DNA from: Bacteroidales bacterium
GTDB lineage: Bacteria; Bacteroidota; Bacteroidia; Bacteroidales; UBA10428
Assembly (NCBI GenBank): GCA_016934395.1
Contig: JAFGSZ010000030.1
Coordinates: forward strand, 4,089-68,088
DNA: 64,000 nt
Reading direction: 5' to 3'
Below, in pieces: positions 3,357 through 60,578 of this stretch. Every line of letters starts with the position of its first letter. The stretch's first letter is position 1. The notes under the pieces were generated by a model. The model was not told the DNA's origin. It saw only the letters and a program-made list of their open reading frames with translations, and made no database searches. The position numbers and the translations under genes are program-made.

Positions 3357-3362
3357 TTTATA

Positions 3363-7069: not shown

Positions 7070-7136
7070 ATTCTTTAATTATAAAAAGTTTTTCTTTCGG
7101 CTGTTTTATCAGATATACCGCAATGTGTACAGTGTT

Positions 7137-28442: not shown

Positions 28443-28443
28443 A

Positions 28444-28511
28444 ATGTGAGAATGATGTAAGTAATATGTTTAATTGTATAACACATCCCTTATTCAACAG
28501 CAGTACCTTTA
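28444..28511 (+). promoter_or_regulatory. Composite stress-island promoter copy P2
   Basis: ATGTGAGAATGATGTAAGTAATATGTTTAATTGTATAAC, 21-nt spacer, TACCTTTA. The cupin ATG lies 26 nt after the box. Confidence 0.7.
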
Positions 28512-31530: not shown

Positions 31531-32457
31531 ATGTTAATTAAAAGATACACGAATAATCCAATACTTACTAAAAAGGATGTGCCCTATCCGGTCGCAACGG
31601 TTCATAATGCAGCTGTAATAAAGTATGAGGGGAAATATGTTATGATATTTCGATCTCATAAACTGAATGGAAGAAGTATTCTTGGGATGGCCGAGAGCGA
31701 AGATGGCTACAATTTTAAAGTACAAAGCAAACCTTTTATGGTTCCGGCCACTGAGGGGATTTTTAAAGAATACGAAGCTTATGGTGTGGAAGATCCCAGG
31801 ATTATTCTTATGGATGGTGAATTTCTTATTACCTATAGTGCTTATTCCAGGCATGGAGTGCGTATCGGACTTGCTAAAACAAAAAATTTTAAATCGGTTG
31901 AACGTTTTTCATTAATTACAGAATCCGACTACCGGAATGTAGTAATTTTCCCTGAAAAAATTGGGGGCTTATATGCACGGCTCGACAGGCCCCATTCTGA
32001 AATATCGCCCTGGTCTATCTGGATATCCTATTCTCCCGATCTGAGGTATTGGGGCGAATCGAAACTTATTATGAAACCTCTGCAATACCACTGGGATGAG
32101 ATGAAGATAGGTCCCGGTGCCCCCCCTGTTAAAACTTCCCGTGGCTGGTTAAGTATCTATCACGGTGTATTTCCCACAATGGACGGGAGCGTTTACAGAT
32201 TGGGCGTGGCCTTGCACGATTTGAAAGATCCCTCAAAAATTATAGCTGTGGGAGATGAATGGATCCTGCAGCCCGAAGAAGTTTACGAGATTACAGGCTA
32301 TGTGCATAATGTGGTGTTTTCCTGTGGCGCTGTTCCGGAAGAAGACGGAAGTGTGAAGATATACTGGGGCGGCGCAGACAGCGTGATGTGCGCAGGTACT
32401 GCAAATCTGGAGGCTCTTGTTGATCATTGTTTAAAGAATCCACGGGCTGCAATGTAA
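31531..32457 (+). CDS. GH130-family glycoside phosphorylase/hydrolase (beta-mannoside type)
   Basis: NPILTKKDVPYP..VHNAAVIKYEGKYVMIFR, GVEDPRI, IYHGV and KIYWGGADS are hallmark GH130 blades. No signal peptide. Confidence 0.85.
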   Translation: MLIKRYTNNPILTKKDVPYPVATVHNAAVIKYEGKYVMIFRSHKLNGRSILGMAESEDGYNFKVQSKPFMVPATEGIFKEYEAYGVEDPRIILMDGEFLITYSAYSRHGVRIGLAKTKNFKSVERFSLITESDYRNVVIFPEKIGGLYARLDRPHSEISPWSIWISYSPDLRYWGESKLIMKPLQYHWDEMKIGPGAPPVKTSRGWLSIYHGVFPTMDGSVYRLGVALHDLKDPSKIIAVGDEWILQPEEVYEITGYVHNVVFSCGAVPEEDGSVKIYWGGADSVMCAGTANLEALVDHCLKNPRAAM

Positions 32458-32531
32458 CTATTTTGATTTGTTATTTAATCCCACAGGATTATAAAAAAAG
32501 CGGAATACATATCAAATGAAAATCACGAATT

Positions 32532-33545
32532 ATGAAAATCGCTGTTCTCTCATCAATAGCCTGGCGTACCCCTCCCAGAAAATATGGCCCCTGGGAACAG
32601 GTAGCTTCTAATATTGCTGAGGGAATGGTTGAACGGGGCATTGACGTAACTTTATTTGCAACCGGCGATTCGATAACAAAGGGCAAATTAGCTTCGGTTT
32701 GCAGACAACCTTATGCAGAGGATTCTTCAGCAGACCCGAAAGTTGCAGAATGTCTTCATATAAGCAATCTTATGGAACAAGCGGATCAATTTGATTTGAT
32801 TCATAACAATTTTGATTTTCTGCCGCTAAGCTATTCACGCCTTATTAATACCCCCATGATTACTACTATTCATGGCTTTTCATCACCAAAAATCCTTCCG
32901 GTATATAAAAAATATGACAGTTCAAATCATTTTGTTTCGATTAGTTATTCCGATCGCAGCCCTGAACTCGATTATATTGCCACTGTATATAATGGTATAA
33001 ATCTTTTGGATTTTACTTTTAATTCCGAACCGTTGGATTACCTGTTGTTTTTTGGCAGAATTCATCCCGAAAAGGGAGTGTTTGAGTCTATTCAGATCGC
33101 CAAAGAATCAAAAAGAAAACTGATTATTTCAGGCCTGATTCAGGATCAGGAGTATTTTAATCTGAAGGTAAAGCCCTTTATCAATAATCAAGACATAGTA
33201 TACGTGGGTAACTCAGGACCTGTTGAACGGATAAGGCTTTTAGGTGAGGCGAACGCCCTTTTGCACCCGATATGTTTTGAAGAACCTTTTGGTCTGAGTG
33301 TTGTGGAAGCCATGGCTTGCGGTACGCCCGTTATTGCATTTAACAGGGGATCTATGCCGGAAATAATCAATGATAAGAAGACAGGGTTTCTTGTCAGTAA
33401 CATTGAAGAAGCGCTGAATGCCATTGGGAAAATAAAAACAATAAACCGGAAAAATTGCAGGAACTGGGTTGCTTCTAAATTTAGTCGTGAAAAAATGATA
33501 GATGCTTATCTGGGAGTTTATAATAAGATATTAAGCAATATATAA
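32532..33545 (+). CDS. GT4-family glycosyltransferase
   Basis: MKIAVLSS...PPRKYGPWE, with a C-terminal EPFGLSVVEAMACGTPVIA motif. Confidence 0.85.
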   Translation: MKIAVLSSIAWRTPPRKYGPWEQVASNIAEGMVERGIDVTLFATGDSITKGKLASVCRQPYAEDSSADPKVAECLHISNLMEQADQFDLIHNNFDFLPLSYSRLINTPMITTIHGFSSPKILPVYKKYDSSNHFVSISYSDRSPELDYIATVYNGINLLDFTFNSEPLDYLLFFGRIHPEKGVFESIQIAKESKRKLIISGLIQDQEYFNLKVKPFINNQDIVYVGNSGPVERIRLLGEANALLHPICFEEPFGLSVVEAMACGTPVIAFNRGSMPEIINDKKTGFLVSNIEEALNAIGKIKTINRKNCRNWVASKFSREKMIDAYLGVYNKILSNI

Positions 33546-37269: not shown

Positions 37270-37641
37270 TTAATTTTTATTATCTTTTCTTTCCAAAGGC
37301 ACGTTTCCGGCCATATCTCCAATAATATTTTTAAGTTCGGTCCCTGATGGAATAACAATTTTTTCATTTTCGGCTTTCACCCTGAAATATACCTGGGCAT
37401 TCACGCTTGCGTTCAGATTATTCTTGGTAATTATTTCCTGGGGCCCGGCATCTACCTTCTGCTCAGTTACATTTACCATAAATATCCGGTCAATAACAGG
37501 AATGATCCAATGAAACCCCGGATTAGCAAGTTTATGGTATTTTCCAAGTCGTTCTATAAGGCCTCTTTGAGTAGGCCTTACAATTCTGATCCTAATAAGA
37601 AATATGATTACAGCGGGAATTAATATATACAAATAGTTCAT
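37270..37641 (-). CDS. SPFH/band-7 domain protein, unusually short (123 aa; possibly internally deleted)
   Basis: TM anchor plus IVRPTQRGLIERLGKYHKLANPGFHWIIPVIDR (a typical SPFH N-terminus). The protein ends about 60 aa later. Confidence 0.6.
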   Translation of the reverse strand: MNYLYILIPAVIIFLIRIRIVRPTQRGLIERLGKYHKLANPGFHWIIPVIDRIFMVNVTEQKVDAGPQEIITKNNLNASVNAQVYFRVKAENEKIVIPSGTELKNIIGDMAGNVPLERKDNKN

Positions 37642-38144: not shown

Positions 38145-38212
38145 TAAAGGTACTTCGAGCGTTTACGCAAAGTATTACATAATTCAGGATAAGAGTTACA
38201 TCATTCACACGT
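38145..38212 (-). promoter_or_regulatory. Composite stress-island promoter copy P3
   Basis: Gene-oriented: ACGTGTGAATGATGTAACTCTTATCCTGAATTATGTAAT, 21-nt spacer, TACCTTTA. Drives the lmo0937-like gene, the CsbD-like gene and (probably) the SPFH gene. Confidence 0.8.
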
Positions 38213-38317
38213 TTAATTATGCCTGAAAACCAACAATATTCAAATATTTAAGTAATTACTTAGAATATTTTTATGAATAATTATTATGCTTTACGTCTCA
38301 TATTTAATTAGTTATTT

Positions 38318-38482
38318 TTAATGTATATTATTAAATAATTGATTGTTAAAAATCAGGTTAAGAAGAATGAGTATTGCAGCTGCGAGCAGCAAATGTATCA
38401 ATGATGATGCATTAAAACCCCAGAAAAAAATACCCCAGATAAGGATTAGTATACCGGCAATCATATATAAAATTATTTTCAT
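38318..38482 (-). CDS. lmo0937-family small membrane protein (54 aa), tandem paralog
   Basis: My translation: MKIILYMIAGILILIWGIFFWGFNASSLIHLLLAAAILILLNLIFNNQLFNNIH. 47 nt downstream of promoter copy P4. Confidence 0.7.
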   Translation of the reverse strand: MKIILYMIAGILILIWGIFFWGFNASSLIHLLLAAAILILLNLIFNNQLFNNIH

Positions 38483-38529: not shown

Positions 38530-38596
38530 CAAAAGTACATTGGTATGTGCAGAATGTATTACACAATTCAGGATAAGAGTTACAATATTCACACAT
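38530..38596 (-). promoter_or_regulatory. Composite stress-island promoter copy P4
   Basis: Gene-oriented: ATGTGTGAATATTGTAACTCTTATCCTGAATTGTGTAAT, 20-nt spacer (the only copy that is not 21), TACTTTTG (a perfect TAnnTTTG). Confidence 0.8.
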
Positions 38597-38688
38597 TTTC
38601 AGCTTGTTTGAGCCTTTATATTTAAAATGTTGAAATCATGAAGGAGCTATTTCTGGATCTCTTTTAAACTGGTTAGTTAAATGGACAT

Positions 38689-38756
38689 GGGTGAGAATGA
38701 TGTAACTCTTTTCTGAAATTGTATAAAAGTTTGTAAAACAAGTGGCGGTATCTTTG
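38689..38756 (+). promoter_or_regulatory. Composite stress-island promoter copy P5 (divergent from P4)
   Basis: GGGTGAGAATGATGTAACTCTTTTCTGAAATTGTATAAA, 21-nt spacer, TATCTTTG. The most diverged distal end. The ATG of the 527-aa gene lies 206 nt downstream. Confidence 0.7.
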
Positions 38757-38962: not shown

Positions 38963-40546
38963 ATGGAAAAGAAAATATATTTAAAAATTGTCATCGGGAT
39001 AATGACCCTTATCCTGCTGATAAAATTTTTAACAATAGTCTTTGTTGGACCATGGGTTAGGGGTAAAATACAGTCAGCCCTGAATGAAAAGAATATAGAT
39101 TACAATGTTGAAATTGACAAGGTCCGTATTTTAATGATCTCTTCTGGAATACAACTGGAAAATATAACAATATGCCCAAATCAGGAGCATCAGGGTGACC
39201 GGATTTTAAACGTGAAAATAGCGTCTATAAAATTTAAAGGGATCAGCCTCGTTAAAGTCCTGTTCAAAAATGACGTCAACATCAGTAATGTTACCATTTA
39301 CAATAGTAGTATTATAGGTGAGTTTCCATTTTCACAGGAAGCAAAACCGCTGATAGTTTTGCCTTTGAATATCCGGATAGGTAGCATTCTTTTTGATAAG
39401 ATACATCTGGATATCCAAAACACTGCATCGGCACAATCTTATTTGGTGAATAGAGGCGTTTTGAAAGTATACGGTTTAAAGGTTGATAAACAGGATACCT
39501 TATCCCCTGGCATTATTAAGCAATTTGATATCGAAGCTGAAGAACTCGTTGTGGCTTCCCCTGATAGTATGTATTCATATACGGCCAGTGGTATTTTCTA
39601 TTCTGCAACTACAAAAACCTTAACCGTAAATAGCTTTTATATTCATCCGAATTATACAGGTTATGATTTCACATCACAGTATGATTTTCAAATGAATTGT
39701 ATTGAAGCCGGCTTCAACAACATTTATGTTCACGATTTTAATGCCACAGGTTATCTCACATCCGGGAGCCTGATAAGCTCCTATATCGAAATCGGAAAAA
39801 TGGATATGAACGTTTTTCGGGATAAGCGTAAAGAATTCCGGCATGTCAACAAACCAACATTCCAGGATTTGATTTACAACTACCCTGGTACTGTCCAAAT
39901 TGATTCACTCAGCCTTATAGACGGAAATGTCACTCTTTCCATACATGCCGAGGAGGCAAACGAACCGGGGAGTATCAGCTTTAATAATATCAATTGTAAA
40001 ATATACAAAATAACAAACAGTACTCTTTACAAAACAGAAAAGGCTTTTTTAGAACTTAAGGGAAATGCCCTTTTAATGGGGAAAAGCAAGATGACTATTC
40101 TATTAAAAGGGAAAATATTCGATAGTCATAACACATTTTTTTTGAATGGAACTCTCTCAAGTCTGGAAGCTAAAGAATTGAACCCTATACTTGAGAAGAG
40201 CGCTTTTATATATGCTACATCTGGCAAAATAGATGAAGTGAAATTTAGCTTTATTGCCAATAACGAAAGGGCAACCGGTAAAATAACCATGCTTTATCAT
40301 GGACTGGATATCGCAGTTAAAAATAAACGAACGGCAGATACCACCGCTATTAAAGAGAGATTTATTTCATTGATTGTCAATAGAAAGTTGTCGGATTCAA
40401 ACCCTATTCCTGATGAAGAAGTGAGAGAGGGAATTATAGATTATGAAAGAGATCCCGAAAGATTTCTTTTTAATTATTGCTTCAAATCTATACTTTCAGG
40501 AATTAAATCCACCCTTATTAAAAACCCAAAGAAAAGTAAAAATTAG
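38963..40546 (+). CDS. N-terminally anchored beta-rich protein (AsmA/DUF748-like), function unknown
   Basis: Single N-terminal TM (IVIGIMTLILLIKFLTIVFV), then 500 aa of repetitive beta-strand-like sequence. The family guess is weak. Confidence 0.5.
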   Translation: MEKKIYLKIVIGIMTLILLIKFLTIVFVGPWVRGKIQSALNEKNIDYNVEIDKVRILMISSGIQLENITICPNQEHQGDRILNVKIASIKFKGISLVKVLFKNDVNISNVTIYNSSIIGEFPFSQEAKPLIVLPLNIRIGSILFDKIHLDIQNTASAQSYLVNRGVLKVYGLKVDKQDTLSPGIIKQFDIEAEELVVASPDSMYSYTASGIFYSATTKTLTVNSFYIHPNYTGYDFTSQYDFQMNCIEAGFNNIYVHDFNATGYLTSGSLISSYIEIGKMDMNVFRDKRKEFRHVNKPTFQDLIYNYPGTVQIDSLSLIDGNVTLSIHAEEANEPGSISFNNINCKIYKITNSTLYKTEKAFLELKGNALLMGKSKMTILLKGKIFDSHNTFFLNGTLSSLEAKELNPILEKSAFIYATSGKIDEVKFSFIANNERATGKITMLYHGLDIAVKNKRTADTTAIKERFISLIVNRKLSDSNPIPDEEVREGIIDYERDPERFLFNYCFKSILSGIKSTLIKNPKKSKN

Positions 40547-42818: not shown

Positions 42819-43346
42819 TTATTTTTTTATAGTTATTACTGTTCTTCTGTTGTTTGTTCTTCCGGCTGCTGTATTATTAAGGTCTGCAGGCTCTTTCTCA
42901 CCCTTTGATTCTACGATAATTTTATTTGCCTGCAAGCCCTTGCTTTCAAAATAATGCTGCATAGTCCGGGCACGCCGATACCCCAGGGATTTATTGTACT
43001 CATCGGACCCAATTGCATCAGTGTGGCCTGTAATACTGAGCCTGGCATGTATGTTCTGTTCCAGGTAGGCCGTTGATAGATAAAAGTACTTATCTGTTGT
43101 TGTGTCAGCATTAAAATCAGATTTGTCAAATGCAAAGTAAACTATCAGGTTTTCAGGGATTGCTGTTTTTTCCGGCACTCTAGACTTAATTAAAGTGTCG
43201 CCAACAATGGTGTCTGTATTGCTGGATCCATAAGATTGTAGAGTTTTCGGTTCATTACACAATCCTTTAATTTTGCACACATAGATATAAGTAGATAATG
43301 CTGACCATGTAACAAACATAAAAAATCCGAATATTAGAATTTTCAT
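42819..43346 (-). CDS. OmpA/MotB-family peptidoglycan-binding protein
   Basis: N-terminal TM/signal, then ITGHTDAIGSDEYNKSLGYRRARTMQHYFESKG (OmpA_C motif). Confidence 0.85.
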   Translation of the reverse strand: MKILIFGFFMFVTWSALSTYIYVCKIKGLCNEPKTLQSYGSSNTDTIVGDTLIKSRVPEKTAIPENLIVYFAFDKSDFNADTTTDKYFYLSTAYLEQNIHARLSITGHTDAIGSDEYNKSLGYRRARTMQHYFESKGLQANKIIVESKGEKEPADLNNTAAGRTNNRRTVITIKK

Positions 43347-43385: not shown

Positions 43386-43453
43386 TAAATGTACAGGCAT
43401 ACACCGTAATATGTGTTACATAACTATTGAAAAGAGTTACATCATTCACACAT
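43386..43453 (-). promoter_or_regulatory. Composite stress-island promoter copy P6
   Basis: Gene-oriented: ATGTGTGAATGATGTAACTCTTTTCAATAGTTATGTAAC, 21-nt spacer, TACATTTA. The OmpA-like ATG lies 39 nt after the box. Confidence 0.8.
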
Positions 43454-43672
43454 ATTCTTAAACACCAACTGATACCCTGTTTTTTATTGGCGACTGCTGT
43501 TGGATAAAAAAAGTAATACTGGAAAGGTTTACACTACTTTTATAAACGATGTAGCGTATTGAAGGGGCAATTCCATTTGAAGATAACTTTTCTGGAAGAA
43601 TCGCCACACCATTGATTACAGGTTTATATAATTAACCCATTTTGAGATTTGCAGCAGTTTGGAATTAGTGCA

Positions 43673-43987: not shown

Positions 43988-44536
43988 TTACTTAAAGCCT
44001 GAAATATCAACTGCCGTCAAAAGGCATTTCTGGTCATCGCCTGTAACAATACCTTCCAAATAAGCCATACATAAAGGATTTTTGTCATTACGGAGCATTA
44101 CTTTGCATGATTCTTTAGCTTTACCGGAAAAAACTTTAATTAAAAAATCGTTAAATACATGCTTTGAATCATCGGAAATGAATAGCATAAAGTTGCTGTC
44201 TACCAAACTAAAGCGTCTTTCTCCCAGCATTTCAGCGCCCGTGAAGTTCAAATCGCAGATACTGGCTTCGGAATCAAGGGTAAAATAGCCAATTGGAGCA
44301 AAATCGTACAACATGGTATATTTTTTAAGGGCAATTTCTGTTGTTTGAAATGCCTGTCGCAACTCTTCGTTTTGCATTTCTAATTCTATCTGGTGCACCT
44401 GAAGCTCGTGCAGAAGTTTTTTTATGTCCGTTTCTTTTTCCGGTTTGCCCGATTTTTTTTGCCGCTTGTTCAGTTTTTCTTCTGCTTTCATGCGCAGTAG
44501 TTGGGCATCTGTAATATTCTGTTCTTTGTAATTCAT
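43988..44536 (-). CDS. Coiled-coil + PAS-domain protein
   Basis: ELEMQNEELRQAFQ...YDFAPIGYFTLD is typical of the PAS modules that follow CheB/CheR fusions. Only 2 nt separate its start from the upstream stop. Confidence 0.7.
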   Translation of the reverse strand: MNYKEQNITDAQLLRMKAEEKLNKRQKKSGKPEKETDIKKLLHELQVHQIELEMQNEELRQAFQTTEIALKKYTMLYDFAPIGYFTLDSEASICDLNFTGAEMLGERRFSLVDSNFMLFISDDSKHVFNDFLIKVFSGKAKESCKVMLRNDKNPLCMAYLEGIVTGDDQKCLLTAVDISGFK

Positions 44537-44538
44537 AG

Positions 44539-47466
44539 CTATGATATATTTTTAGTGATCATAATTATTTCTTCGGGTATTTTTAAACTGTTAAGCACTA
44601 TATTTACGAACCATTCAACAACCAGCACATTTCCTCCGGCTGCTATTACCTTTATTTTAATCTTGTTGTCCGGAATTTCGTGCAGCATCTTATTTAAATC
44701 TTTTTCAGTCTTTTTTTGCACCTGTACCGGAATAAACATCTGAATAAAATTTTGATCTACAGCATCCTCAAGTTTATTGCCGAAAAATTTTTCAGCTTCG
44801 GAATTAAATGCCAGTATTTTCCAATTGGTTGATAATTTAATAAAAACAGCCGGGGAAAAACTAAAGAGCATGCGATTTATAAGCTCTGATTCGTACAATT
44901 TTACTTCTACCTGCTTAAGATCGGAGATGTTAATAAACGTGATAACCAGCCCGTTTATCCTGTCATCGAACGTGCGGTAAGGCATAATACGAATGGAAAA
45001 CCATCGCCCGTCTTTGGCCGGAATGGCTTTTTGAGTAAATACGAGTGTATCTAATACTTCGAGGGCATCCTGGGCCAATTCGGGGTATATAAGTTCAGAA
45101 ACCAGATCGGTTAATGGCCGTCCTATATCGCTTTTTATAAGTTTAAAAATTTTCGTTGCCATGTTAGTATAGCGACGGATATTTAATTCTTTGTCGAGAA
45201 ACAATGTAGCAATATCGGTGGCATTGAGCAGGTTTTTCATATCATTGTTCACCCGCGAAAAATCATCTACCTTCGATTGCAGTTCGGCATTTACAGTTTG
45301 AAGCTCTTCATTAAGGCTTTGCATTTCTTCTTTTGAACTTGTCAGTTCTTCGTTGGTAGATTGTAATTCTTCATTGGTAGATTGTAATTCTTCGTTTGTG
45401 GATTTTAATTCTTCCTGGGATGTCTGCATTTCCTCAACCGTGTTTTGCATTTCTTCGCGTAAATCCTGCAACTCTTTTTCCAACTCCAATTGTCTGTCAC
45501 CACTGGAAGCTTTTATATCTTTTTTTGTAGCCGGTTTGATGTTGATAATTTCTGGTACATCAGTAAAAATTATCATTACTGTACCATATAATTGTTCTGG
45601 TTTATCAATCCATTGAATATTTACATTTAAAGATTGTGTACCTCCGTTTGTGCCGACTTTGATATTGGAAAGGACCACGGTATCTTTTTTCAAAATAGCT
45701 TTGCGGAAAGCGATTGGGAATTCGTTACGCAAACCATCGCGCAGCATGGCGAAAATATTCATATTGGCTTTACCAACAGCCGGCTCCAGGTATTTTCCCG
45801 TGCGTCCGCTAACGTAAAGGATATCGCCATTTTCGTTTACCAGAACGCCGGATGGCGAAAAATGCTGCAATAATAATTGATCGGCAAGCGATTGAATATT
45901 AGGGGTTGATTTTGCAGGCATTTGTTTCTCAATATTGGTAGGTTTATCTCGGGAAAATGAAGTAGGAAAATCGAATAATTCAGGCATCAGGGTAGTAATA
46001 GAACGCTTGAAAATTTTCAATTTGTTATCCACGGCGTTAAAAAGATGGCTTTGCGTTCCAAGTGTTTCAGAGCTACCTAGCACAACAATCCCATCCGGGT
46101 TAGTGCTGTAGTAAAACAAGCCAAGCAATTTTTTTTGAAGTTCTGCATCCATATATATAAGGAGATTACGGCACGAAATGATATCGATCTTTGTAAAGGG
46201 CGGATGTAAAATGATGTTGTGTTGCGCAAATACCACCATTTCCCTTATTTCACTCGATACTTGATAGCCATTCTCTGTTGAAACAAAAAACCGGTCGAGG
46301 CGCTCGGTAGATACATCGGCAGCAATATTTGAAGGGAAAACACCTTTTCTGGCTGTTTCAATAGCTTCGTTGTCGAGATCGGTAGCAAAAATCTGTAACG
46401 ATATTCCTCTTGGTGGATTTATTTTTCCAATAACTTCCTTAAAGGTGATGGCCAATGAATATGCCTCTTCACCTGTTGAACACGCTGGTACCCATGCCCG
46501 CATTATAGAACCGGCTTCCGTATTCCTGATAATAGTTGGAATTACAGTATCTTTTAACTTTTCCCACACAGTGGGATCGCGAAAGAAATTAGTTACGCCA
46601 ATCATTAATTCCTTAAAAAGAATATCCACTTCCTTTTGATTTTTCTGCAAAAAGTTAACATAAGAAGTTATTTTATCAATTTTATGGACACCCATGCGCC
46701 TTTCGATGCGGCGGTATACTGTACTTTTTTTATACAACGAAAAGTCGTTGCCTGTATAAGTGCGTAACAAAATAATAATTTTTTCGAGGGCGCTTTTGTC
46801 TTTAATTTCGATTTCCAGGCTAGATGCAGCAATAGGGGCATTATTTTTAATGAATTCTATAAGTTTAACAGGCAAATCGTTGGCCGGGGCAACAATGTCC
46901 ATCAATACAGAATCTATGGCATTGCGCGGCATACTGTCGAATTTTGCCGAGGCAGGGTCCTGTGCCATAACTATTCCCCCTTTTTCTTTTAAGGCCCTGA
47001 GCCCCAAACTGCCATCGGAGCCCATACCCGAAAGAATGATACCAATTCCAAGATCCCTCAGGTCATCGGCGAGCGAGCGCAGGAAAAAATCAATTGGAAG
47101 GCGCAGCCCTCTTGCTTCTATTGGGTCAAAAAGATGAAGCACACCCTTTAATATTGACATGCTCTTATTTGGCGGAATTACATACACACAGTTTGGTTTA
47201 ACAACCATGCGGTCCTTTACCAGGAAAACTTTCATGGCAGAAAACCGCTGAAGCAACTCCGGCAACATGCCTTTTTGGGTAGGGTCCAGGTGTTGGATCA
47301 CAATATAGGCCAGGCCACTATTTTTAGGTACATTACCCAGAAATAGCTCCAGGGCTTCCAGGCCTCCGGCCGATGCGCCAATTCCGACTATTGGAAAAGG
47401 GTTAGCGGTTGCACTTGAAGTCTTCTTTTGTAATGATATTTTTGATTTTGGTTTTTTGGTTTTCAC
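44539..47466 (-). CDS. CheB methylesterase - CheR methyltransferase - coiled coil - PAS fusion protein
   Basis: CheB catalytic domain (GASAGGLEAL...QHLDP), CheR SAM-binding region (RAWVPACSTGEEAYSLA), heptad coiled coil EELQSTNEELQSTNEEL, C-terminal PAS domains. No REC and no HK domain. Confidence 0.9.
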   Translation of the reverse strand: MKTKKPKSKISLQKKTSSATANPFPIVGIGASAGGLEALELFLGNVPKNSGLAYIVIQHLDPTQKGMLPELLQRFSAMKVFLVKDRMVVKPNCVYVIPPNKSMSILKGVLHLFDPIEARGLRLPIDFFLRSLADDLRDLGIGIILSGMGSDGSLGLRALKEKGGIVMAQDPASAKFDSMPRNAIDSVLMDIVAPANDLPVKLIEFIKNNAPIAASSLEIEIKDKSALEKIIILLRTYTGNDFSLYKKSTVYRRIERRMGVHKIDKITSYVNFLQKNQKEVDILFKELMIGVTNFFRDPTVWEKLKDTVIPTIIRNTEAGSIMRAWVPACSTGEEAYSLAITFKEVIGKINPPRGISLQIFATDLDNEAIETARKGVFPSNIAADVSTERLDRFFVSTENGYQVSSEIREMVVFAQHNIILHPPFTKIDIISCRNLLIYMDAELQKKLLGLFYYSTNPDGIVVLGSSETLGTQSHLFNAVDNKLKIFKRSITTLMPELFDFPTSFSRDKPTNIEKQMPAKSTPNIQSLADQLLLQHFSPSGVLVNENGDILYVSGRTGKYLEPAVGKANMNIFAMLRDGLRNEFPIAFRKAILKKDTVVLSNIKVGTNGGTQSLNVNIQWIDKPEQLYGTVMIIFTDVPEIINIKPATKKDIKASSGDRQLELEKELQDLREEMQNTVEEMQTSQEELKSTNEELQSTNEELQSTNEELTSSKEEMQSLNEELQTVNAELQSKVDDFSRVNNDMKNLLNATDIATLFLDKELNIRRYTNMATKIFKLIKSDIGRPLTDLVSELIYPELAQDALEVLDTLVFTQKAIPAKDGRWFSIRIMPYRTFDDRINGLVITFINISDLKQVEVKLYESELINRMLFSFSPAVFIKLSTNWKILAFNSEAEKFFGNKLEDAVDQNFIQMFIPVQVQKKTEKDLNKMLHEIPDNKIKIKVIAAGGNVLVVEWFVNIVLNSLKIPEEIIMITKNIS
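45346..45408 (-). repeat. 3 x 21-bp perfect/near-perfect tandem repeat encoding the STNEELQ heptads
   Basis: ttcttcgttggtagattgtaa / ttcttcattggtagattgtaa / ttcttcgtttgtggattttaa, read directly from the plus strand. Confidence 0.85.
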
Positions 47467-47657
47467 GGGTAAGTATATTTTTTAAATAATTTACCAGCCT
47501 GGTAAAACATCACAGCTCTTTTTTTCTCCATACAGGCAGTACGGATTTCTACTGCATAACATCTTTTCAATAAAAACCCATATAATGTATTTATACAAAT
47601 TAATGAAAAAAATATCAAATCCTTAATAACCCGGCAAATGATTTTATCGTCCAATGA

Positions 47658-47882
47658 TTACCATTTCCTTCTGGAGACTACCAAACCGAGCAGAAAACCG
47701 GCCCCTAAACTGATCAGAATCAGGGCCCAATTCCAATGGGTAATGCCAGTCCATCGGCCTCCATGCATTATTCCTCTGGTCCATGGCCCACCGCCCAATA
47801 GTAGAAAAGCCACTATTATAATTGCAATAGCGACAACATAGAGAATTTTTCTGTTTTTTATTGTGATTCTTCTTTTTTTCAT
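47658..47882 (-). CDS. Small membrane protein (74 aa)
   Basis: The track ORF starts at 47924, which would lie inside promoter P7. The internal start MKKRRITIKNRKILYVVAIAIIIVAF (ATG 47882) lies 24 nt after the -7 box. Confidence 0.55.
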   Translation of the reverse strand: MKKRRITIKNRKILYVVAIAIIIVAFLLLGGGPWTRGIMHGGRWTGITHWNWALILISLGAGFLLGLVVSRRKW

Positions 47883-47906
47883 AATTTTCTTCTTATCTGA
47901 TAAAAT

Positions 47907-47974
47907 TAAAATTAGATAATACAAGTGTATTTTGTATTACATAACTTTTTATAAGAGTTACATCATTCACACAT
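47907..47974 (-). promoter_or_regulatory. Composite stress-island promoter copy P7
   Basis: Gene-oriented: ATGTGTGAATGATGTAACTCTTATAAAAAGTTATGTAAT, 21-nt spacer, TAATTTTA. It lies upstream of the small membrane protein and the CheB-CheR-PAS / PAS genes. Confidence 0.8.
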
Positions 47975-48087
47975 TTTTAAACTGTAGTTGGGTACTTAGG
48001 TTGGTTATTGGCCTGCTGGTTTGTATAATTGCGGCAGTCTAAGCTGCTAAGCAGTAATTTGCCTGGTCCTTCAGGCATAAACAGGAT

Positions 48088-48972
48088 TTAAATATAATGC
48101 GGTAATGTAAACTTAATTTCGCATCCTTTGCCTGGTGCGCTTTCTACAAGTATATTTCCATTATGTATATCAACAAATTCCTTACAGAGCAACAATCCTA
48201 ATCCCGTACCTTTTTCATTATTGGTGCCTGCAGTTGAACGTAACTTTTGTATATTAAAAAGTTCTTTTTGGTCTTGAGATGAAATTCCAATGCCGTTGTC
48301 TTTTACTGCTATCTCAACAAATGGTTTGATTTCTATTGCACTTACAATAATTTTACCGCCAGTATTTGTAAATTTTATAGCGTTGCTGATCAAATTGCGA
48401 AGTATCGTTTTTACCATCTGAAGGTCGGCGGTTACATTTAAACCGGGCGCAACGGAATGTTCCAGTGTTATTTGTTTTTGTATGGCTGAAGTATTGTGGT
48501 TCATAAATTCGGCTTCCAACAATTCATATAAATTAATCTTAACCGGATTAAAGTTTCGCTCTTTATTTTGTGAAATAGTCCAATCTAAAAGGTCATCAAG
48601 AAGTTTTAATGTTCTCTTTGCAGAATCTGCAGCGAGGTTAATATAATTTTCGATTGTATCTATACTTTTATCATGCAGGTTCTCCTTTACTATATCCATA
48701 AGGTTTAATATAGAAATAAAAGGGCTTCTTAAATCATGTGCTATGATAGAAATAAATTTTGTATTTGTTGCAATAACATCAATTAATTCCTTTGATTGTT
48801 TTTCAACAAGATTTTCCAAATAGAAATTGAATTTATTTATTTCCTGCAAATTCAATTTTTTAATATTTCCCGTTGCACTGCCGGTATCTGAAATAACATT
48901 TGATTTATCAGGTGATTTTGAATTTCTGTGTTTACTTTTAGCAGTATTTTTAACGGATTTTAATTTTGTCAT
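48088..48972 (-). CDS. Soluble histidine kinase (HisKA + HATPase_c, no sensor domain)
   Basis: IIAHDLRSPF H-box, N-box LISNAIKFT, G-boxes DNGIGIS and GTGLGLLLCKEFV. The start overlaps the AraC stop in an ATGA. Confidence 0.9.
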   Translation of the reverse strand: MTKLKSVKNTAKSKHRNSKSPDKSNVISDTGSATGNIKKLNLQEINKFNFYLENLVEKQSKELIDVIATNTKFISIIAHDLRSPFISILNLMDIVKENLHDKSIDTIENYINLAADSAKRTLKLLDDLLDWTISQNKERNFNPVKINLYELLEAEFMNHNTSAIQKQITLEHSVAPGLNVTADLQMVKTILRNLISNAIKFTNTGGKIIVSAIEIKPFVEIAVKDNGIGISSQDQKELFNIQKLRSTAGTNNEKGTGLGLLLCKEFVDIHNGNILVESAPGKGCEIKFTLPHYI

Positions 48973-49559
48973 AACGGATGTTTATTTGTTGGTAACGTTT
49001 TTATGGTTTCCGGAATGCTGACCCTGGTGTGCCGAAGTTGCCTGAAATGCAAAGGCGTTAGCCCCGTTAGGCTTTTAAACTGGCTGGATAATTGTGCAGC
49101 ACTGCTGTAATGCATTTTAAGTGCAATTTTTTCAATATCAAGATCTTCGTACACGAGTAATTCTTTTACCCGCTCAATTTTATATTTTATAATGTATTTT
49201 TCAATGGTAATGCCTTCTATTTCTGCAAACAACGTGTTCAGGGTAATAAAGTTATCATTTACTTTCAAGCTAATGTAATCCGCATAGCTTGTTTTTAAAT
49301 CTTCATCTGAATAATTTTCCAAATCAACAACCGCCCTTTTTAATTTCTCTATAAGATCATTTTTTTTCTCTTCTATCAGTTCAAAACCAGATTGCTGCAA
49401 TGCATTATATAACTGGGTGCGTTGTACGGGGGTTATTTTATTATTTGTAATTACTTCCCCTAACTCCACGGTAATATATTGAATACCTAGTTTGTTCAGT
49501 TCGGTCCTTACGATTGTTTTGCAACGATTGCAAACCATATTTTTAATATAGAGTTTCAT
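48969..49559 (-). CDS. HMA-like (MxCxxC) domain fused to an AraC-family HTH regulator (paralog 2)
   Basis: MKLYIKNMVCNRCKTIV..., with a C-terminal AraC HTH (MHYSSAAQLSSQFKSLTGLTPLHF). Same architecture as 26152-26712. Confidence 0.85.
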   Translation of the reverse strand: MKLYIKNMVCNRCKTIVRTELNKLGIQYITVELGEVITNNKITPVQRTQLYNALQQSGFELIEEKKNDLIEKLKRAVVDLENYSDEDLKTSYADYISLKVNDNFITLNTLFAEIEGITIEKYIIKYKIERVKELLVYEDLDIEKIALKMHYSSAAQLSSQFKSLTGLTPLHFRQLRHTRVSIPETIKTLPTNKHPL

Positions 49560-49899
49560 GTTTTTTGATTTATTAGATCATACTGATGAAGGATATTAGT
49601 TTAACTCAGTTCTAGTAACAAGTCCTTCCAAAGTTTTTTTCAAGTTATAGCTGAAGCCTTTCAGGTATTTTTTCCTTTAGATATAGTTACACCATGTAAT
49701 TTTTCCGGATAGATGGTATATTGCGGCTTAAACCCTAAATTAAATTACATTTCGTATTTTGCACAAAACAGGGTCATGTTTATTGAGGCAATGTTTTTAC
49801 TATTTTAATGTTAACTATTCTTAAACAAACCTGAAATTAAAATTAACTATCGATAAAAAGTATTTTGAATAACATTTATATTATTGAATCACTTTTAAG

Positions 49900-49967
49900 T
49901 AAAGTTAGGTTATTATCCTGGCAAAAACGTTACATAATTCTTTAACAGTCTTACATAATTCACACAT
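49900..49967 (-). promoter_or_regulatory. Composite stress-island promoter copy P8
   Basis: Gene-oriented: ATGTGTGAATTATGTAAGACTGTTAAAGAATTATGTAAC, 21-nt spacer, TAACTTTA. The next start codon (HMA-AraC paralog 2) is 340 nt downstream. Confidence 0.75.
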
Positions 49968-50075
49968 TACTAATTGATTTTGTGTCTTTTATATTTTAAT
50001 TCCTTAAATTTTAATATAAAATTAGGGTTGGTATATATGGGCCGGCCTTATAAAAGTAGCGCCTGGGGATATAAC

Positions 50076-50624
50076 TTATTTACAATCTTGATGGGATAGG
50101 GCCTTAATACCCCGGTTTGGCTTAGCTTCTCTGTTCAACTGGTCAATCAATTTCCTTCTTGCAAGGTAAATTCTGCTCTTTACAGTTCCAAGATTTATAT
50201 CAAGTATTTCAGCAATCTCTTTATACTTAAAACCCTCGTGGTGCATTTTGAAAGGGTGTTTTAAATTGTCATCCAGTGTTTCAATTGTTTTTTCAAGTTC
50301 TTTTGAAATAAATATAGATGAAGGATCATCAGCTCCCGTTGCATGTGGAGGATTTTGGCAATATCCTTCCTTCTTCTGATTATTATAAGCATTTTGAAGT
50401 ATTGTGCTGCGATAATGGTTAATAAATGTATTTTTCATAATGGTTAGTGTCCATGCTTTAAAATTAGACTCGTATACGAACTTATTGCAATTTTTCAAAG
50501 CTTTCAGTAAGGTCTCCTGAACCAGGTCTTTTGCATCATCCTTATCAGCAGTAAGATGGTAAGCAAATCTCATCAGACTATCCTGGAGGTTTATGAGTTC
50601 ATTGCTAAATTCTGAAGCTGTCAT
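50076..50624 (-). CDS. ECF-type sigma-70 family RNA polymerase sigma factor
   Basis: Region 2 (DAKDLVQETLLKALKN...FKAWTLTIMKNTFINHYR) and region 4 (GFKYKEIAEILDINLGTVKSRIYLARRKL). No co-transcribed anti-sigma candidate. Confidence 0.85.
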   Translation of the reverse strand: MTASEFSNELINLQDSLMRFAYHLTADKDDAKDLVQETLLKALKNCNKFVYESNFKAWTLTIMKNTFINHYRSTILQNAYNNQKKEGYCQNPPHATGADDPSSIFISKELEKTIETLDDNLKHPFKMHHEGFKYKEIAEILDINLGTVKSRIYLARRKLIDQLNREAKPNRGIKALSHQDCK

Positions 50625-50667
50625 ATTAATTTAGTTTATTGGGGTTATCCCATTAATTAACTGAATA

Positions 50668-50735
50668 TAAAATTGCAGGATTTACTGGTAATAAATATTA
50701 CATAACATTAGAAAAAAGTTACATCATTCACACAT
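50668..50735 (-). promoter_or_regulatory. Composite stress-island promoter copy P9
   Basis: Gene-oriented: ATGTGTGAATGATGTAACTTTTTTCTAATGTTATGTAAT, 21-nt spacer, CAATTTTA. The sigma-factor ATG lies 43 nt after the box. Confidence 0.8.
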
Positions 50736-50830
50736 TTACAGATGATTCCGTCAATTTTGTCATAAAACACTACGGATTTTTTAAAATGCCGATTGTATAA
50801 CAACGATCAATAATTAATTTGCAATTATCT

Positions 50831-52384
50831 TTAAATCAAATAATCTGCTATTAATTCTACCAGGGTGTTCTGTTGAACAGGTTTTGAAATATACACATCA
50901 AATCCTGACTGCAGGCCTTGCACTTTTTGAGGGTCGGGGGCAAAGGCTGATTGAGCAATAACCGGTAATTTAGACCGAATGTGTTTTATACGCTGTGTGG
51001 CTTCATAACCATCCATAACCGGCATTCTGATATCCATTAATACCAACGAGATATCAGGATGTTTTTTTACATGCTCCACAGCTTCTCGTCCGTTCAGGGC
51101 ATGAACTATCTTAATTTTTGTTGAAGAGAGCAATTTTTCAATATAATCAAAATTAATTATCTCATCCTCCGCGATAAGAATGGTTTTTTTATCCCAGTTA
51201 AATTTTCGACCAGGTGTTTTCTTTAACGAAATGCCGGGATTTTTAATTTTATTTATATAAGGAATAGTAAAGGTGAAGGTTGAACCTCTTCCGGGCTCTG
51301 AGTCAACAGTTATGGTACCGCCCAGTTTTTCAACCAGGGCTTTTGAAATTGATAATCCCAGTCCGGTTCCACCATATTCCCGGGTATCTGCTGTTTCTGC
51401 CTGTTTGAAAGGTTGAAAAATAAGCGCATGGTTTTCCGGGGCGATGCCGATGCCGGTATCTTTAACATAGAACTCCAGAAAATTCCTTCTTGTTTTATAT
51501 CCGAATTCAATTTTGCCTTTTCTGGTGAATTTTATGGCATTATTCAATAAGTTGCAAAGTATCTGTTTAATCCTGTATTCATCTGTTTTAATCTGAAAAG
51601 TCTCATTGTCAGCATAATAAGAATAATATAACTGGATTTTATTAGCTTCAACTATTTTTTTATAGGTTTCAAATAATTGTTTTAATAAGTTATTGATATT
51701 AACCAATTCAGAATTTATATTTAATTGGCCTGTTTCGATTTTCGAAATATCTAAAATGTCAGTTATAACAGATAATAACTGCTGGCTATTGGTATTAATT
51801 ATCTGAACATAATCGGCAAGTTTTTCTTTAGTTAATCCGGGTTGCAGGAGTAGCTTCGAAAATCCGGTAATTGCATTCATCGGGGTCCTTATTTCATGAT
51901 TTATATTGGCTAAAAAAGCGGTTTTCAGTTTATCAGATTCTTTTGCTTTAACATTTGCCAACATCAAATCTTCATTCATTTTTTGAATAAGTTTTGAACT
52001 TTCTGCCAGTTTCCTTTTCAATTCGTTAATGTCCGGGTCAGATTTTTCTTTATTTCTGAATAAACTAATCTCCCAAAGTTTTTTGCCGATAATTTTTTCC
52101 AGGGGATATTTCAGGATTTTAATTAAAGACGGGTTAGCATCAACAATTTTTTCGGTTATGGGATCAATAATTAAAATACCTTCTTTTGCGGTATTAAGAA
52201 GTTTCCGTTGCTGCAACCCTGAAAATGTAATAGACTTTATCACTTTTTTTTCTTCCTTTTCCTCTATTCGATTTCTAGAATAAGGGATTTCAAAGGGTTG
52301 TCCTGATAGTCTTTTCTTGACCATGGCATTACAAATTTTTATAACCTTGTTATGATAACTAATGCCTTTTGAGTATGTTCCCAA
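50831..52384 (-). CDS. Hybrid sensor histidine kinase (PAS - HisKA - HATPase_c - REC)
   Basis: PAS (EGILIIDPITEKIVDANP), H-box NINHEIRTPMNAI, GGTGLGLSISKALVE, C-terminal REC (ILIAEDEIIN...LMDIRMPVMDG). Confidence 0.9.
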   Translation of the reverse strand: MGTYSKGISYHNKVIKICNAMVKKRLSGQPFEIPYSRNRIEEKEEKKVIKSITFSGLQQRKLLNTAKEGILIIDPITEKIVDANPSLIKILKYPLEKIIGKKLWEISLFRNKEKSDPDINELKRKLAESSKLIQKMNEDLMLANVKAKESDKLKTAFLANINHEIRTPMNAITGFSKLLLQPGLTKEKLADYVQIINTNSQQLLSVITDILDISKIETGQLNINSELVNINNLLKQLFETYKKIVEANKIQLYYSYYADNETFQIKTDEYRIKQILCNLLNNAIKFTRKGKIEFGYKTRRNFLEFYVKDTGIGIAPENHALIFQPFKQAETADTREYGGTGLGLSISKALVEKLGGTITVDSEPGRGSTFTFTIPYINKIKNPGISLKKTPGRKFNWDKKTILIAEDEIINFDYIEKLLSSTKIKIVHALNGREAVEHVKKHPDISLVLMDIRMPVMDGYEATQRIKHIRSKLPVIAQSAFAPDPQKVQGLQSGFDVYISKPVQQNTLVELIADYLI

Positions 52385-52581
52385 ATAACCTTGCTAAGAT
52401 TCCAACTCGTTTAAAAAAAATCTTATGCTTAAATATTTTTTTGTTTCTACTTCTTTGTAATTGCAATAAAGTGAGTAATTTAACCGATAAGTATCGCAAA
52501 TTTCTGTTTGGTTTTTTTCAATATATTATCACATTAGTATACATGATGTTTCTTTAATGAAAAGAGTGATTTTCGGTAAAA

Positions 52582-52649
52582 TAAATGTAAATTATTTATC
52601 AATAAAATGGGTTACATAATTCTTTAAAAGATTTACATTATTCACACAT
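52582..52649 (-). promoter_or_regulatory. Composite stress-island promoter copy P10
   Basis: Gene-oriented: ATGTGTGAATAATGTAAATCTTTTAAAGAATTATGTAAC, 21-nt spacer, TACATTTA. The hybrid HK ATG is 197 nt downstream. Confidence 0.75.
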
Positions 52650-52728
52650 TTGTATTACACTACCTATAATTTACTGCGTTTGTGGAGCTGTTATCTTTGA
52701 CTGGGTATTAAGATTAGGAGTGAGAAAA

Positions 52729-56104: not shown

Positions 56105-56172
56105 TAAAGGTAACTGATAAAGCATCTGAACTTGTTACATAATTAAGTAAATAATTTATATGATTCACACAT
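56105..56172 (-). promoter_or_regulatory. Composite stress-island promoter copy P11
   Basis: Gene-oriented: ATGTGTGAATCATATAAATTATTTACTTAATTATGTAAC, 21-nt spacer, TACCTTTA. The ATG lies 35 nt after the box. Confidence 0.8.
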
Positions 56173-56293
56173 TCGGTTTTTTTGGTACTTATTCCGGCTT
56201 AAGGTACACGCTTTTGCCGGGAAGACTTTTTCTGTTTAACTATAGTTGAAACAGGAGGGATGTTTAAACTGGCTTATGTTCACTAGCAAGTGT

Positions 56294-59623: not shown

Positions 59624-60076
59624 TTAGTTAACATTTTCAATGGTGAAATTTTTTAAAGCTTTACCCAATTCGTCCATATCATTACTAAATTCGGTTTTAA
59701 ATATTTCCCAGTTGTCTTTACCTTCTTCCTTAAATTCATCAAGTTTATTATTCAAATCTTTGTTCTTCTGTTCTAATTCCGCCAATTTCTTTTCGTATAT
59801 GGCTTTGTTTTTCTTTTTCTCGTTTGTTATTTTTGCTTTTAATTCAGCAATACTTTTATCATTAGCAATGATTTTTGCTTTTGATTCATTTTTGAATTGT
59901 TGAATAGAATTTTTCAATGCCTGGTTTAGCTCATGGTTAGCTTCTACCATGTTATCCTTTGCATCCTCCACGTTATCAAGGGCATTTTCTACATTTTTAT
60001 TTGATGACTTGCAACCGGTTAACATTGTACCAGCAATAAATACTGTCATCGTCAGGATAAAAATTACTTTCTTCAT
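59624..60076 (-). CDS. Coiled-coil lipoprotein (150 aa)
   Basis: Lipobox LTGCKSS, then KE/N-rich heptads. Confidence 0.65.
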   Translation of the reverse strand: MKKVIFILTMTVFIAGTMLTGCKSSNKNVENALDNVEDAKDNMVEANHELNQALKNSIQQFKNESKAKIIANDKSIAELKAKITNEKKKNKAIYEKKLAELEQKNKDLNNKLDEFKEEGKDNWEIFKTEFSNDMDELGKALKNFTIENVN

Positions 60077-60417: not shown

Positions 60418-60485
60418 CAAAGGTGAGACCTTTAAACCGGGAAACTGTTACATAACTTTGAAAATAAGTTACATCATTCACACAT
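60418..60485 (-). promoter_or_regulatory. Composite stress-island promoter copy P12
   Basis: Gene-oriented: ATGTGTGAATGATGTAACTTATTTTCAAAGTTATGTAAC, 21-nt spacer, CACCTTTG. The CsbD ATG lies 59 nt after the box. Confidence 0.8.
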
Positions 60486-60578
60486 TGTTAATGACAATAA
60501 AGTATACGGTTCCTAAAGTCAGGAAAAACATCCGGTTAGTTTATAAAAGAATTGGCGGGTGGATTAGCATGTTTGTTG

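Follow-up and report, generated by a model that had tools for sequence, protein, structure and literature searches.

Why do four neighboring units of signaling genes open with the same DNA element as a set of stress-protection genes, and which protein reads that element? The locus lies in a 64,000-nt stretch of a Bacteroidales genome (contig JAFGSZ010000030.1, positions 4,089 to 68,088; here called the window), which is AT-rich (GC content, ∼34%) and whose proteins have their closest relatives in metagenome-assembled genomes of Bacteroidales and Marinilabiliales. An earlier reading of this DNA (the original prediction) placed copies of a recurrent motif, named P10, P9, P8, and P7, in front of four minus-strand units encoding, respectively, a hybrid histidine kinase; an extracytoplasmic function (ECF)-type sigma factor; an AraC-type regulator with an HMA domain (HMA-AraC) plus a soluble kinase; and a small membrane protein, a CheB-CheR-PAS fusion, and a PAS protein. 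We located all four copies, among 12 in the window, at the head of units spanning 43988-52650. Pfam matches bore out the gene content of each unit, and the HMA assignment of the AraC-type regulator draws on a weak CopZ match and on the model of a paralogue. The best explanation, in which we place slightly better than even confidence, is that the four units belong to one stress regulon driven through the motif by an activator, HMA-AraC.

A conserved motif heads the hub and a stress-like gene set

A pattern search of the window that allowed up to 3 mismatches recovered 12 copies of the motif, versus 0.07 expected from shuffles. The 42-nt consensus is AATGTGTGAATgATGTAAcTcTTtT....AaTTaTGTAAC, and the sequence common to the four hub intergenic regions is AATGTGTGAATgATGTAAC-N13-TTATGTAAC. 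A position weight matrix (PWM) built from the 12 copies scored them at 42.8 to 58.9 bits and, scanned over both strands (128 kb), returned nothing else at or above 12 bits. Internally, the motif is a direct repeat of the 12-bp (G)AATnATGTAAC in columns 7-18 and 28-39, with a 21-bp period and an extra TGTGTG extension on the 5′ side. Every copy has the orientation of the gene that follows it (Table 1). The halves were never found apart, except for one weak match to the downstream half at 32452. This lone match (32452-32481, plus strand; ATGTAACTATTTTGATTTGTTATTTAATCC, 22 bits) lacks the 5′ portion TGTGTGAAT. It sits at the end of a GH130 gene, 50 nt before a glycosyltransferase gene (32532-33545), and either a weak internal site or coincidence may account for it.

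Among 80 genome loci gathered around homologues of the ECF sigma factor, only L002, L005, and L011 carry the motif. L002 holds 7 copies in 17 kb, one before each unit of the same hub, which there comprises two sigma paralogues, four AraC paralogues, two kinases, the small membrane protein, the CheB-CheR fusion, and the PAS protein; L005 and L083 likewise have the hub with the motif ahead of each unit. In metagenome contigs that encode closer sigma relatives (L081-L084), the motif precedes the sigma gene, and it is also present in L081 and L083, as well as in the cultured Maribellus comscasis. It is kept, amid flanking DNA that shows no conservation, before orthologous genes whose proteins are only 50 to 70% identical.

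An exact-pattern metagenome scan returned at least 120 stretches containing the motif. The largest open reading frame (ORF) behind it encoded an OmpA-like protein in 14, an ice-binding-like protein in 14, MlaE in 10, a coiled-coil lipoprotein like that at 59624-60076 in 9, a cupin, CsbD, or sigma factor in 8 each, HMA-AraC in 6, and a kinase or YtxH in 4 each, with universal stress protein (USP), YceI, and beta-barrel outer membrane proteins also represented. Targets in the window include two membrane proteins of 53 to 54 aa, CsbD-like and SPFH proteins, PIG-L/GT4/GH100-like enzymes, a radical-SAM/B12 enzyme, and an M1 peptidase. In metagenome contigs, the gene immediately following the motif is repeatedly one for AraC, sigma, or histidine kinase. 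Judged by its gene content, the motif set is a general-stress-like regulon with regulators as habitual members.

These results give substance, through CsbD, YtxH, USP, OmpA, SPFH, and YceI, to the analogy with general-stress modules that the original prediction had drawn. Positive feedback or a cascade is a fair reading as well, as the motif before the hub regulators is conserved and recurs in metagenome contigs. The accompanying statement that every regulator carries its own motif is correct inside the hub; it does not extend to the whole window, where a second HMA-AraC gene (AraC2, 26152-26712; the hub gene is AraC1) has no motif upstream.

The 14 ice-binding-like genes, together with cold-shock-domain genes, a DEAD-box helicase, and a fatty-acid desaturase near or behind motifs (L205 15575-16274, L206 11570-13461, and L207 19578-19769), hint at cold or freezing, which may be one inducing stress. 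The SPFH/Band_7 ORF of the window (37270-37641, minus strand) is only 123 aa long and spans positions 1 to 75 of a 176-position profile. Related loci have 290- to 320-aa Band_7 genes behind the motif, and the window ORF may be truncated or frameshifted.

A position-locked box suggests an activator site

Alignment of the leaders behind AraC-type genes first exposed a conserved TAnnTTTA ∼20 nt after the motif. Of 199 non-redundant motif instances, retrieved with a pattern that did not contain the box columns, 164 show.A..TTT[GA] at offset 61 and 16 more show it at offset 60 (180 of 199 together); the background for the stricter TA..TTT[GA] is 0.0012 per position. The box, as nAnCTTT(G/A), is present behind all 12 window copies. 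Start codons never lie upstream of it, and the predicted leaders of seven window genes are 21 to 45 nt long. The Bacteroidetes sigma-A -7 box is TAnnTTTG, at -12 to -5 (PMC9723704). Since the box is locked ∼20 to 21 nt downstream and resembles this element, the motif would span ∼-73 to -32. In columns 40-60 the information content is near zero and there is no conserved TTG of a -33 TTTG element (∼19 to 21 nt before the -7 box), which is consistent with activator dependence. Boxes resembling the -7 element also occur upstream of ordinary window genes.

We conclude that the motif is probably an upstream activator site on a housekeeping-type promoter and not the promoter of a dedicated sigma factor. 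Two repeats 21 bp apart are the layout of the tandem sites at araI and of XylS at Pm. The suggestion that hub regulators and stress genes share a promoter type therefore stands in the sense of a shared conserved element (L002, L005, and L083) and, given the -7-like box, probably falls in the sense of a distinct promoter read by its own sigma factor. The case carries a warning about method: repeated TGTAAC hexamers can readily pass for an ECF promoter, and a conserved downstream -7 box shifts the likely reader of the motif.

Some leaders behind the motif are long (∼190 to 335 nt), namely 49560-49926 and 52385-52608 on the minus strand and, in L002, 7231-7546, 11697-11920, and 12515-12803. They belong to AraC1-type genes and the hybrid kinase. 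We found no credible ORF in them, and an Rfam scan of the window gave 0 matches and thus no known riboswitch in these leaders. Between the window and L002 they share little sequence except for the -7 box.

AraC2 as the candidate reader of the motif

AraC1 and AraC2 are 50% identical and match HTH_18 at 6.6e-13 and 8.9e-15, respectively (Pfam). The AlphaFold model of AraC2 (predicted local distance difference test [pLDDT] score, 87) has a C-terminal seven-helix fold with a double helix-turn-helix (HTH), and this domain matched the DNA-binding domains of YesN-C, AraT, MarA, AdpA, and AraC (TM score, 0.72 to 0.84) as well as SoxS. The N-terminal domain is modeled as beta-alpha-beta-beta-alpha-beta (strand 2-6, helix 11-23, strands 28-32 and 35-38, helix 44-55, and strand 59-61; pLDDT, ∼90). 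Its Foldseek matches were TTHA1718, CopZ, Atx1, Atox1, and the CopA metal-binding domain, at a target-normalized TM score of ∼0.6; the Pfam HMA model gives no match. The metal-binding loop of HMA domains is GMxCxxC; here, the MVCxRC signature is invariant in 35 close AraC2/AraC1 sequences, and its first Cys is Ser in many more distant homologues.

The gene and the motif keep close company. In 7 metagenome loci the 3′ end of AraC2 runs into the motif, always at the same offset; L005, L155, and the window show this overlap too, and in 4 further loci the motif lies divergently upstream of AraC2 orthologues. We also picked four loci by AraC2 protein identity alone (L205-L208, including M. comscasis CP046401.1). 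The motif directly follows AraC2 in all four, where 1 to 4 copies lie within 20 kb. Near AraC2, no ECF sigma gene was called in any of them (none within 10 kb). L207 has the gene order of the window: AraC2, motif, radical SAM, motif, cupin. In a set of 124 contigs (L081-L204), gathered by matches to the motif or by close relatives of the sigma factor, 17 encode AraC homologues and 7 the sigma factor. AraC2 has >8,000 homologues, the best 120 clusters of which are 80 to 89% identical and include M. comscasis (85%; cultured, with a complete genome) and Draconibacterium. This level of identity matches the near-invariance of the motif.

Adjacency to the motif, conservation of AraC2, and the AraC-type geometry of the site together rank HMA-AraC as the likeliest reader. 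Most likely, AraC2 would be the primary activator and AraC1 a motif-driven feedback paralogue.

The usual gene after the motif downstream of AraC2 encodes a small cupin (28538-28888 in the window; also L204, L188, L135, L092, L155, and L207). AraC2 and its neighboring cupin look like a split version of the cupin-plus-HTH AraC architecture, and the cupin could be a ligand-binding partner. Approximately 300 nt upstream of AraC2, at 25808-25850, there is an inverted pair, AATTTGTGAAT...ATTCACAATT, which looks like a decayed divergent motif copy (minus strand) at the place where four loci hold an intact motif. We considered a role of this TGTGAAT pair as an operator and rejected it, as TGTGAAT occurs elsewhere at the chance level (14 versus ∼14.5 expected).

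Alternative readers

Several observations weigh against HMA-AraC acting at a housekeeping-type promoter. The full TAnnTTT[GA] is found in 66 of the 199 instances, with the first T in only about one-third, and position and consensus are what the -7 assignment rests on. The number of AraC paralogues per genome (2 in the window and 4 in L002) blurs which of them binds the motif, and the adjacency of AraC2 and motif could just reflect a conserved AraC2-cupin gene pair. In L028, an AraC2-like gene (65% identical, with the same second-HTH helix) has no motif within 19 kb, and TCTTAAT repeats stand before both the AraC and the sigma genes. Further points concern the orphan sigma factor, whose autoregulated promoter the motif might be, with the two TGTAAC as -35 and -10 elements and the sigma factor driving all twelve copies. 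In the downstream half of the motif, the arrangement TGTAAC-N15-TGTAAC with a T-rich tract behind the first hexamer resembles ECF promoters such as those of Bacillus subtilis sigma-X and sigma-W. Sigma factors associated with the motif group in a single clade (split present; bootstrap, 72/100), and the motif occurs in 3 of 4 clade loci versus 0 of the 76 loci of more distant homologues (80 genome loci; Fisher, 4.9e-5). In 9 loci, with both sigma paralogues of L002 among them, it lies 56 to 72 nt ahead of the sigma start codon, and autoregulation is typical of ECF sigma factors (PMC7826278). Even so, an ECF promoter leaves the invariant 5′ AATGTGTGAAT and the locked nAnCTTTG box unexplained, and its -35 and -10 elements would be the same heptamer repeated, which is unusual for a sigma factor and typical of tandem transcription-factor sites. 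The DNA-reading segments KAWTxTIMKNTFINxYR and IGTVKSRIF (regions 2.3-2.4 and 4.2) are invariant across the sigma family, in members with the motif, with another upstream repeat, or behind plain sigma-A promoters; such invariance, which extends to identity of regions 2.4 and 4.2 in relatives without the motif, is difficult to square with a promoter specific to one clade. L001 belongs to the clade (59% identity) and has a promoter of the sigma-A type, with the motif absent within 20 kb, and the four AraC2-centered loci have the motif without a sigma gene nearby. We downgraded the ECF promoter model once the locked -7 box had emerged in the leader alignment and in the 199 instances, and we now consider it improbable. 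By these comparisons the ECF sigma factor is more likely a regulon member, in a second tier, than the reader of the motif.

An unlinked DNA-binding protein, for example a response regulator of the hub kinases, might instead read the site, with HMA-AraC and the sigma factor only members or neighbors of the regulon. Two kinases and a receiver domain are encoded in the hub, which contains no response regulator with a DNA-binding domain, and direct repeats with a 21-bp period also fit LytTR-type regulators. The TCTTAAT repeats of L028 (5025-5075 and 9885-9940; also L046, upstream of 10001) consist of 3 to 5 units with an 11-bp period and, in L028, adjoin a LytTR-like gene (9091-9831). Their sharing by AraC and sigma genes implies that a third factor can co-regulate both, and they may represent a lineage-specific alternative circuit. 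The LytTR regulator of the window (15424-16143), which we tried as a candidate reader and rejected, has no homologue in the 124 contigs L081-L204. No other transcription-factor family recurs beside the motif, as AraC2 does at a fixed offset, and the extreme conservation of AraC2 parallels that of the motif; we regard an unlinked reader as unlikely, although a more serious contender than the sigma factor. That the motif is simply a dispersed element, of the repetitive extragenic palindromic (REP) or miniature inverted-repeat transposable element (MITE) kind, or a chance AT-rich similarity would suit its short, intergenic copies in a genome of 34% GC. This idea is effectively refuted by the excess of copies over expectation, by an orientation that always follows the gene, by the -7-like box at a fixed distance, and by retention before orthologues amid unconserved flanks.

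Kinases, AraC1, and the orphan sigma factor

The true start of the hybrid kinase may be an ATG at 52323, and the leader is ∼190 to 250 nt long. The pair of AraC1 and soluble kinase genes is kept in L002 (twice) and in L083. Behind one AraC paralogue of L002 the kinase is split into two overlapping ORFs (9432-9929 and 9904-10332), which suggests a frameshift or a pseudogene.

The sigma factor has regions 2 and 4 (Sigma70_r2, 4.6e-16; Sigma70_r4_2, 7.2e-13) without region 3. A PhyR_sigma2 match (E value, 2.9e-4) is below the cut-off and reflects general sigma similarity. Against the nearest named family, GFO_1088/PG0214 (NCBIfam NF058625), it scores 101.7 bits, under the cut-off of 130, and is not a member. 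Between the sigma gene and P8 we found no credible ORF of at least 20 aa, in agreement with the proposal that the sigma factor has no adjacent anti-sigma, and none adjoins it in L002, L081, or L083 either. A neighboring cognate anti-sigma is common among ECF sigma factors and not obligatory. Transcriptional control through the motif would explain its absence here. For SigH of Porphyromonas gingivalis (ECF114), control at transcription has been proposed, and in SigP-PorX (ECF228) the sigma factor is stabilized by a response regulator (PMC7826278). By analogy, a SigP-PorX-like stabilization is possible for the window sigma factor, and single-domain receiver proteins recur in related loci. Partner switching, which had been suggested for this sigma factor, gains no support from Pfam scans of 50 window ORFs (those of at least 90 aa judged real genes, plus three shorter ones), in which no STAS, RsbW-like, or PP2C domain appeared; transcriptional control suffices. 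As to an EcfG-NepR-PhyR system, we found no PhyR or NepR proteins in the window. Finally, TGTTTAA...TTGTTAAACA, which we had considered as an autoregulatory promoter of the distant sigma homologues, proved to represent ordinary sigma-A promoters (TTTG...TAnnTTTG).

A CheB-CheR fusion without chemotaxis partners in the window

The CheB-CheR fusion retains the CheB motifs GASAGG, QH, and GMGSDG (CheB_methylest, 5.3e-52; CheR, 4.9e-51; Pfam) and aligns to the solved structures 5ftw, 1af7, and 3sft, its CheR domain to 5ftw and 1af7. The CheB portion has no REC domain. From these features, the fusion is predicted to be catalytically competent. It has at least 120 orthologue clusters; the best 119 are 71 to 78% identical, with uniform length and architecture, and the named ones are mostly called CheB/CheR fusion protein. 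The motif stands ahead of the unit in the window, L002, L005, and L118 and does not in four other contigs. The PAS protein follows the fusion in L002, L005, L118, and L200. In L200 (646-4850), the CheB-CheR, PAS protein, and sigma genes adjoin in one orientation, linking CheB-CheR to the sigma factor physically.

The same Pfam scans of 50 ORFs detected no methyl-accepting chemotaxis protein (MCP), CheA, CheW, or stand-alone CheY in the window. The coiled coil of the fusion carries the heptads EELKST, EELQST, EELQST, and EELTSS at residues 685-711. These four are instances of EExx[AS][ST], a pattern with 0 occurrences in 29 other window proteins, and they fit the classical methylation consensus EExxA(S/T) with Ser replacing Ala. 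The heptad block is near-invariant in orthologues, and the neighboring linker is variable. The view that the enzyme acts on something other than a chemoreceptor thus gains from both the missing partners and a candidate substrate: CheB-CheR probably methylates and demethylates glutamates of its own EELQSTN heptad coiled coil. A stricter 10-residue methylation consensus is unmet, which counts against this assignment, and the likeness to methylation sites is a resemblance of pattern. The NEEL helix of the PAS partner is possibly a further substrate. In L101 (∼4324-4695, minus strand), a histidine kinase has SEELQSQQEELKQMNEELEE heptads directly upstream of its H-box, and kinases of this type could be trans substrates of CheB-CheR fusions. 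Such fusions are abundant in nonchemotactic bacteria, and this locus offers a route into them, with candidate methylation sites in the same protein.

Elsewhere in the window, a Ser/Thr protein kinase gene adjoins a type III restriction-modification methylase gene (1308-5303). Within 4000-10000, the GC content jumps from 27 to 29% (4 to 8 kb) to 45% over an amidase gene (8075-9694), a sharp change in composition that suggests acquired DNA.

Table 1. Positions of motif copies, predicted -7 boxes, and genes of the hub and its candidate regulator in the window
Feature	Position	Strand	Context or basis
P10 motif	52609-52650	-	Before hybrid kinase; PWM 54.3 bits, exact pattern match
P9 motif	50695-50736	-	Before ECF sigma gene; PWM 51.2 bits
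P8 motif	49927-49968	-	Before AraC1-histidine kinase operon; PWM 46.6 bits
P7 motif	47934-47975	-	Before small membrane protein/CheB-CheR/PAS unit; PWM 57.7 bits
Motif	26704-26745	+	Overlaps 3′ end of AraC2; before radical-SAM/B12/DUF4070 gene
Motif	28443-28484	+	Before cupin gene 28538-28888
Motif	38688-38729	+	Before 527-aa protein, 38963-40546
Motif	38556-38597	-	Before 54-aa membrane protein, 38318-38482
Motif	38172-38213	-	Before 53-aa membrane protein, CsbD-like 61-aa protein, SPFH, then PIG-L/GT4/GH100-like
Motif	43413-43454	-	Before OmpA-like gene, 42819-43346
Motif	56132-56173	-	Before operon 55740-52729 (YtxH, holin-X-like, AI-2E transporter)
Motif	60445-60486	-	Before coiled-coil protein 59624-60076 and M1 peptidase
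P10 predicted -7 box	52582-52589	-	TTACATTTAT context; offset 61-68 from motif start
P9 predicted -7 box	50668-50675	-	CAATTTTA; position-locked
P8 predicted -7 box	49900-49907	-	TAACTTTA; leader of ∼335 nt left behind box
P7 predicted -7 box	47907-47914	-	TAATTTTA; position-locked
Soluble hybrid kinase, PAS-HisKA-HATPase-REC, 517 aa from TTG	50831-52384	-	Pfam
ECF-type sigma factor, 182 aa	50076-50624	-	Pfam, homologues, tree
AraC1 (HMA-AraC), 196 aa, MVCNRC motif, HTH_18	48969-49559	-	Pfam, weak CopZ match, alignment
Soluble histidine kinase, HisKA-HATPase, 294 aa, no membrane segment	48088-48972	-	Pfam; overlaps AraC1 stop codon
Small membrane protein, 88 aa	47658-47924	-	Probable start ATG at 47881; homologue before CheB-CheR in L002
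CheB-CheR_N-CheR-coiled coil-PAS_10-PAS fusion, 975 aa	44539-47466	-	Pfam, sequence, structure alignment
PAS protein, 182 aa, N-terminal ELQVHQIELEMQNEEL helix	43988-44536	-	Predicted to be cotranscribed with CheB-CheR
AraC2 (HMA-AraC), 186 aa	26152-26712	+	Candidate motif reader; stop codon inside next motif

Proposed mechanism and significance

We propose a composite promoter in which the 42-bp activator site is followed by a sigma-A -7 box without a -33 element. Tandem protomers of an AraC/XylS-type protein would bind the site and recruit RNA polymerase. AraC2, which is not motif-driven, would be the primary activator, switched through its CxxC HMA-like domain or through the adjoining cupin. 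Once on, the activator would induce protective genes (those for CsbD, YtxH, USP, OmpA-like and SPFH proteins, and sugar-modifying enzymes) together with the hub: the PAS hybrid kinase, the soluble kinase and AraC1, the CheB-CheR-PAS fusion and its PAS partner, and the ECF sigma factor. AraC1 and the sensors would supply positive feedback and the sigma factor a second transcriptional tier, and self-methylation of CheB-CheR might serve as an adaptation or memory element without chemoreceptors.

Environmental Bacteroidia are not known to have an RpoS, sigma-B, or EcfG system, and as far as our searches could show, no general-stress master regulator has been described for Bacteroidota. HMA-AraC might be such an unrecognized master activator in environmental Bacteroidia, with a tandem site of 42 bp at housekeeping-type promoters as its target, an ECF sigma factor as second tier, and a self-methylating CheB-CheR-PAS protein as an adaptation module free of chemoreceptors; we put this wider claim forward as a tentative possibility. 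Literature searches returned nothing describing this system. All of its components are of known families, and their combination (HMA-AraC, the 42-bp site, a stress-like regulon, a downstream ECF sigma factor, and a chemoreceptor-free CheB-CheR) appears to be undescribed. The candidate is testable, with a sharp cis element, a very conserved regulator, and classic stress genes, and genetics is possible because the motif and a close AraC2 orthologue are present in the cultured M. comscasis.

Comparison with known systems

The predicted arrangement is closest in layout to AraC/XylS activators (araI1-I2, XylS at Pm, RhaS, and MelR), with two repeats 21 bp apart at ∼-73 to -32, a promoter that apparently lacks an upstream recognition element and would depend on its activator, a regulator gene adjoining the target promoter, and a modeled C-terminal double HTH in AraC2 like those of MarA, AraC, AdpA, and SoxS. 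It differs in having a small HMA/ferredoxin-like CxxC N-terminal domain instead of a cupin, with a separate cupin behind the motif, and in having a Bacteroidetes -7 core promoter and a large stress-oriented regulon; binding here is predicted from sequence. MarA, SoxS, and Rob are likewise small AraC-type proteins that act on many stress promoters, at an asymmetric box of ∼20 bp near -35, and that show autoregulation. In contrast, the site described here consists of tandem repeats and has twice that length, its proposed regulator bears a sensor-like domain, and kinases, a sigma factor, and a CheB-CheR fusion are among the regulon members.

With CheR/CheB adaptation of MCPs, the fusion shares the CheB triad motifs, the S-adenosylmethionine-binding fold of CheR, and coiled-coil EExx[A/S][S/T] heptads. 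Unlike that system, CheB here has no receiver, the window holds no MCP, CheA, CheW, or CheY, and a single polypeptide, which has PAS domains and lacks a kinase output, combines the enzyme with its putative substrate. The short ECF sigma factor without a neighboring anti-sigma recalls ECF114 SigH and ECF228 SigP-PorX of the Bacteroidetes member P. gingivalis, whereas its own nearest named family is GFO_1088/PG0214, at a score below the cut-off. Finally, sigma-B of Firmicutes and EcfG-NepR-PhyR of Alphaproteobacteria also govern CsbD, YtxH, USP, envelope, and osmoprotection genes, include their regulators in their own regulon (positive feedback), and receive input from several sensor kinases. 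RsbV/RsbW/PP2C and NepR/PhyR have no counterpart here; instead, the shared element probably serves housekeeping-type promoters as an activator site, and the ECF sigma factor appears as a downstream tier.

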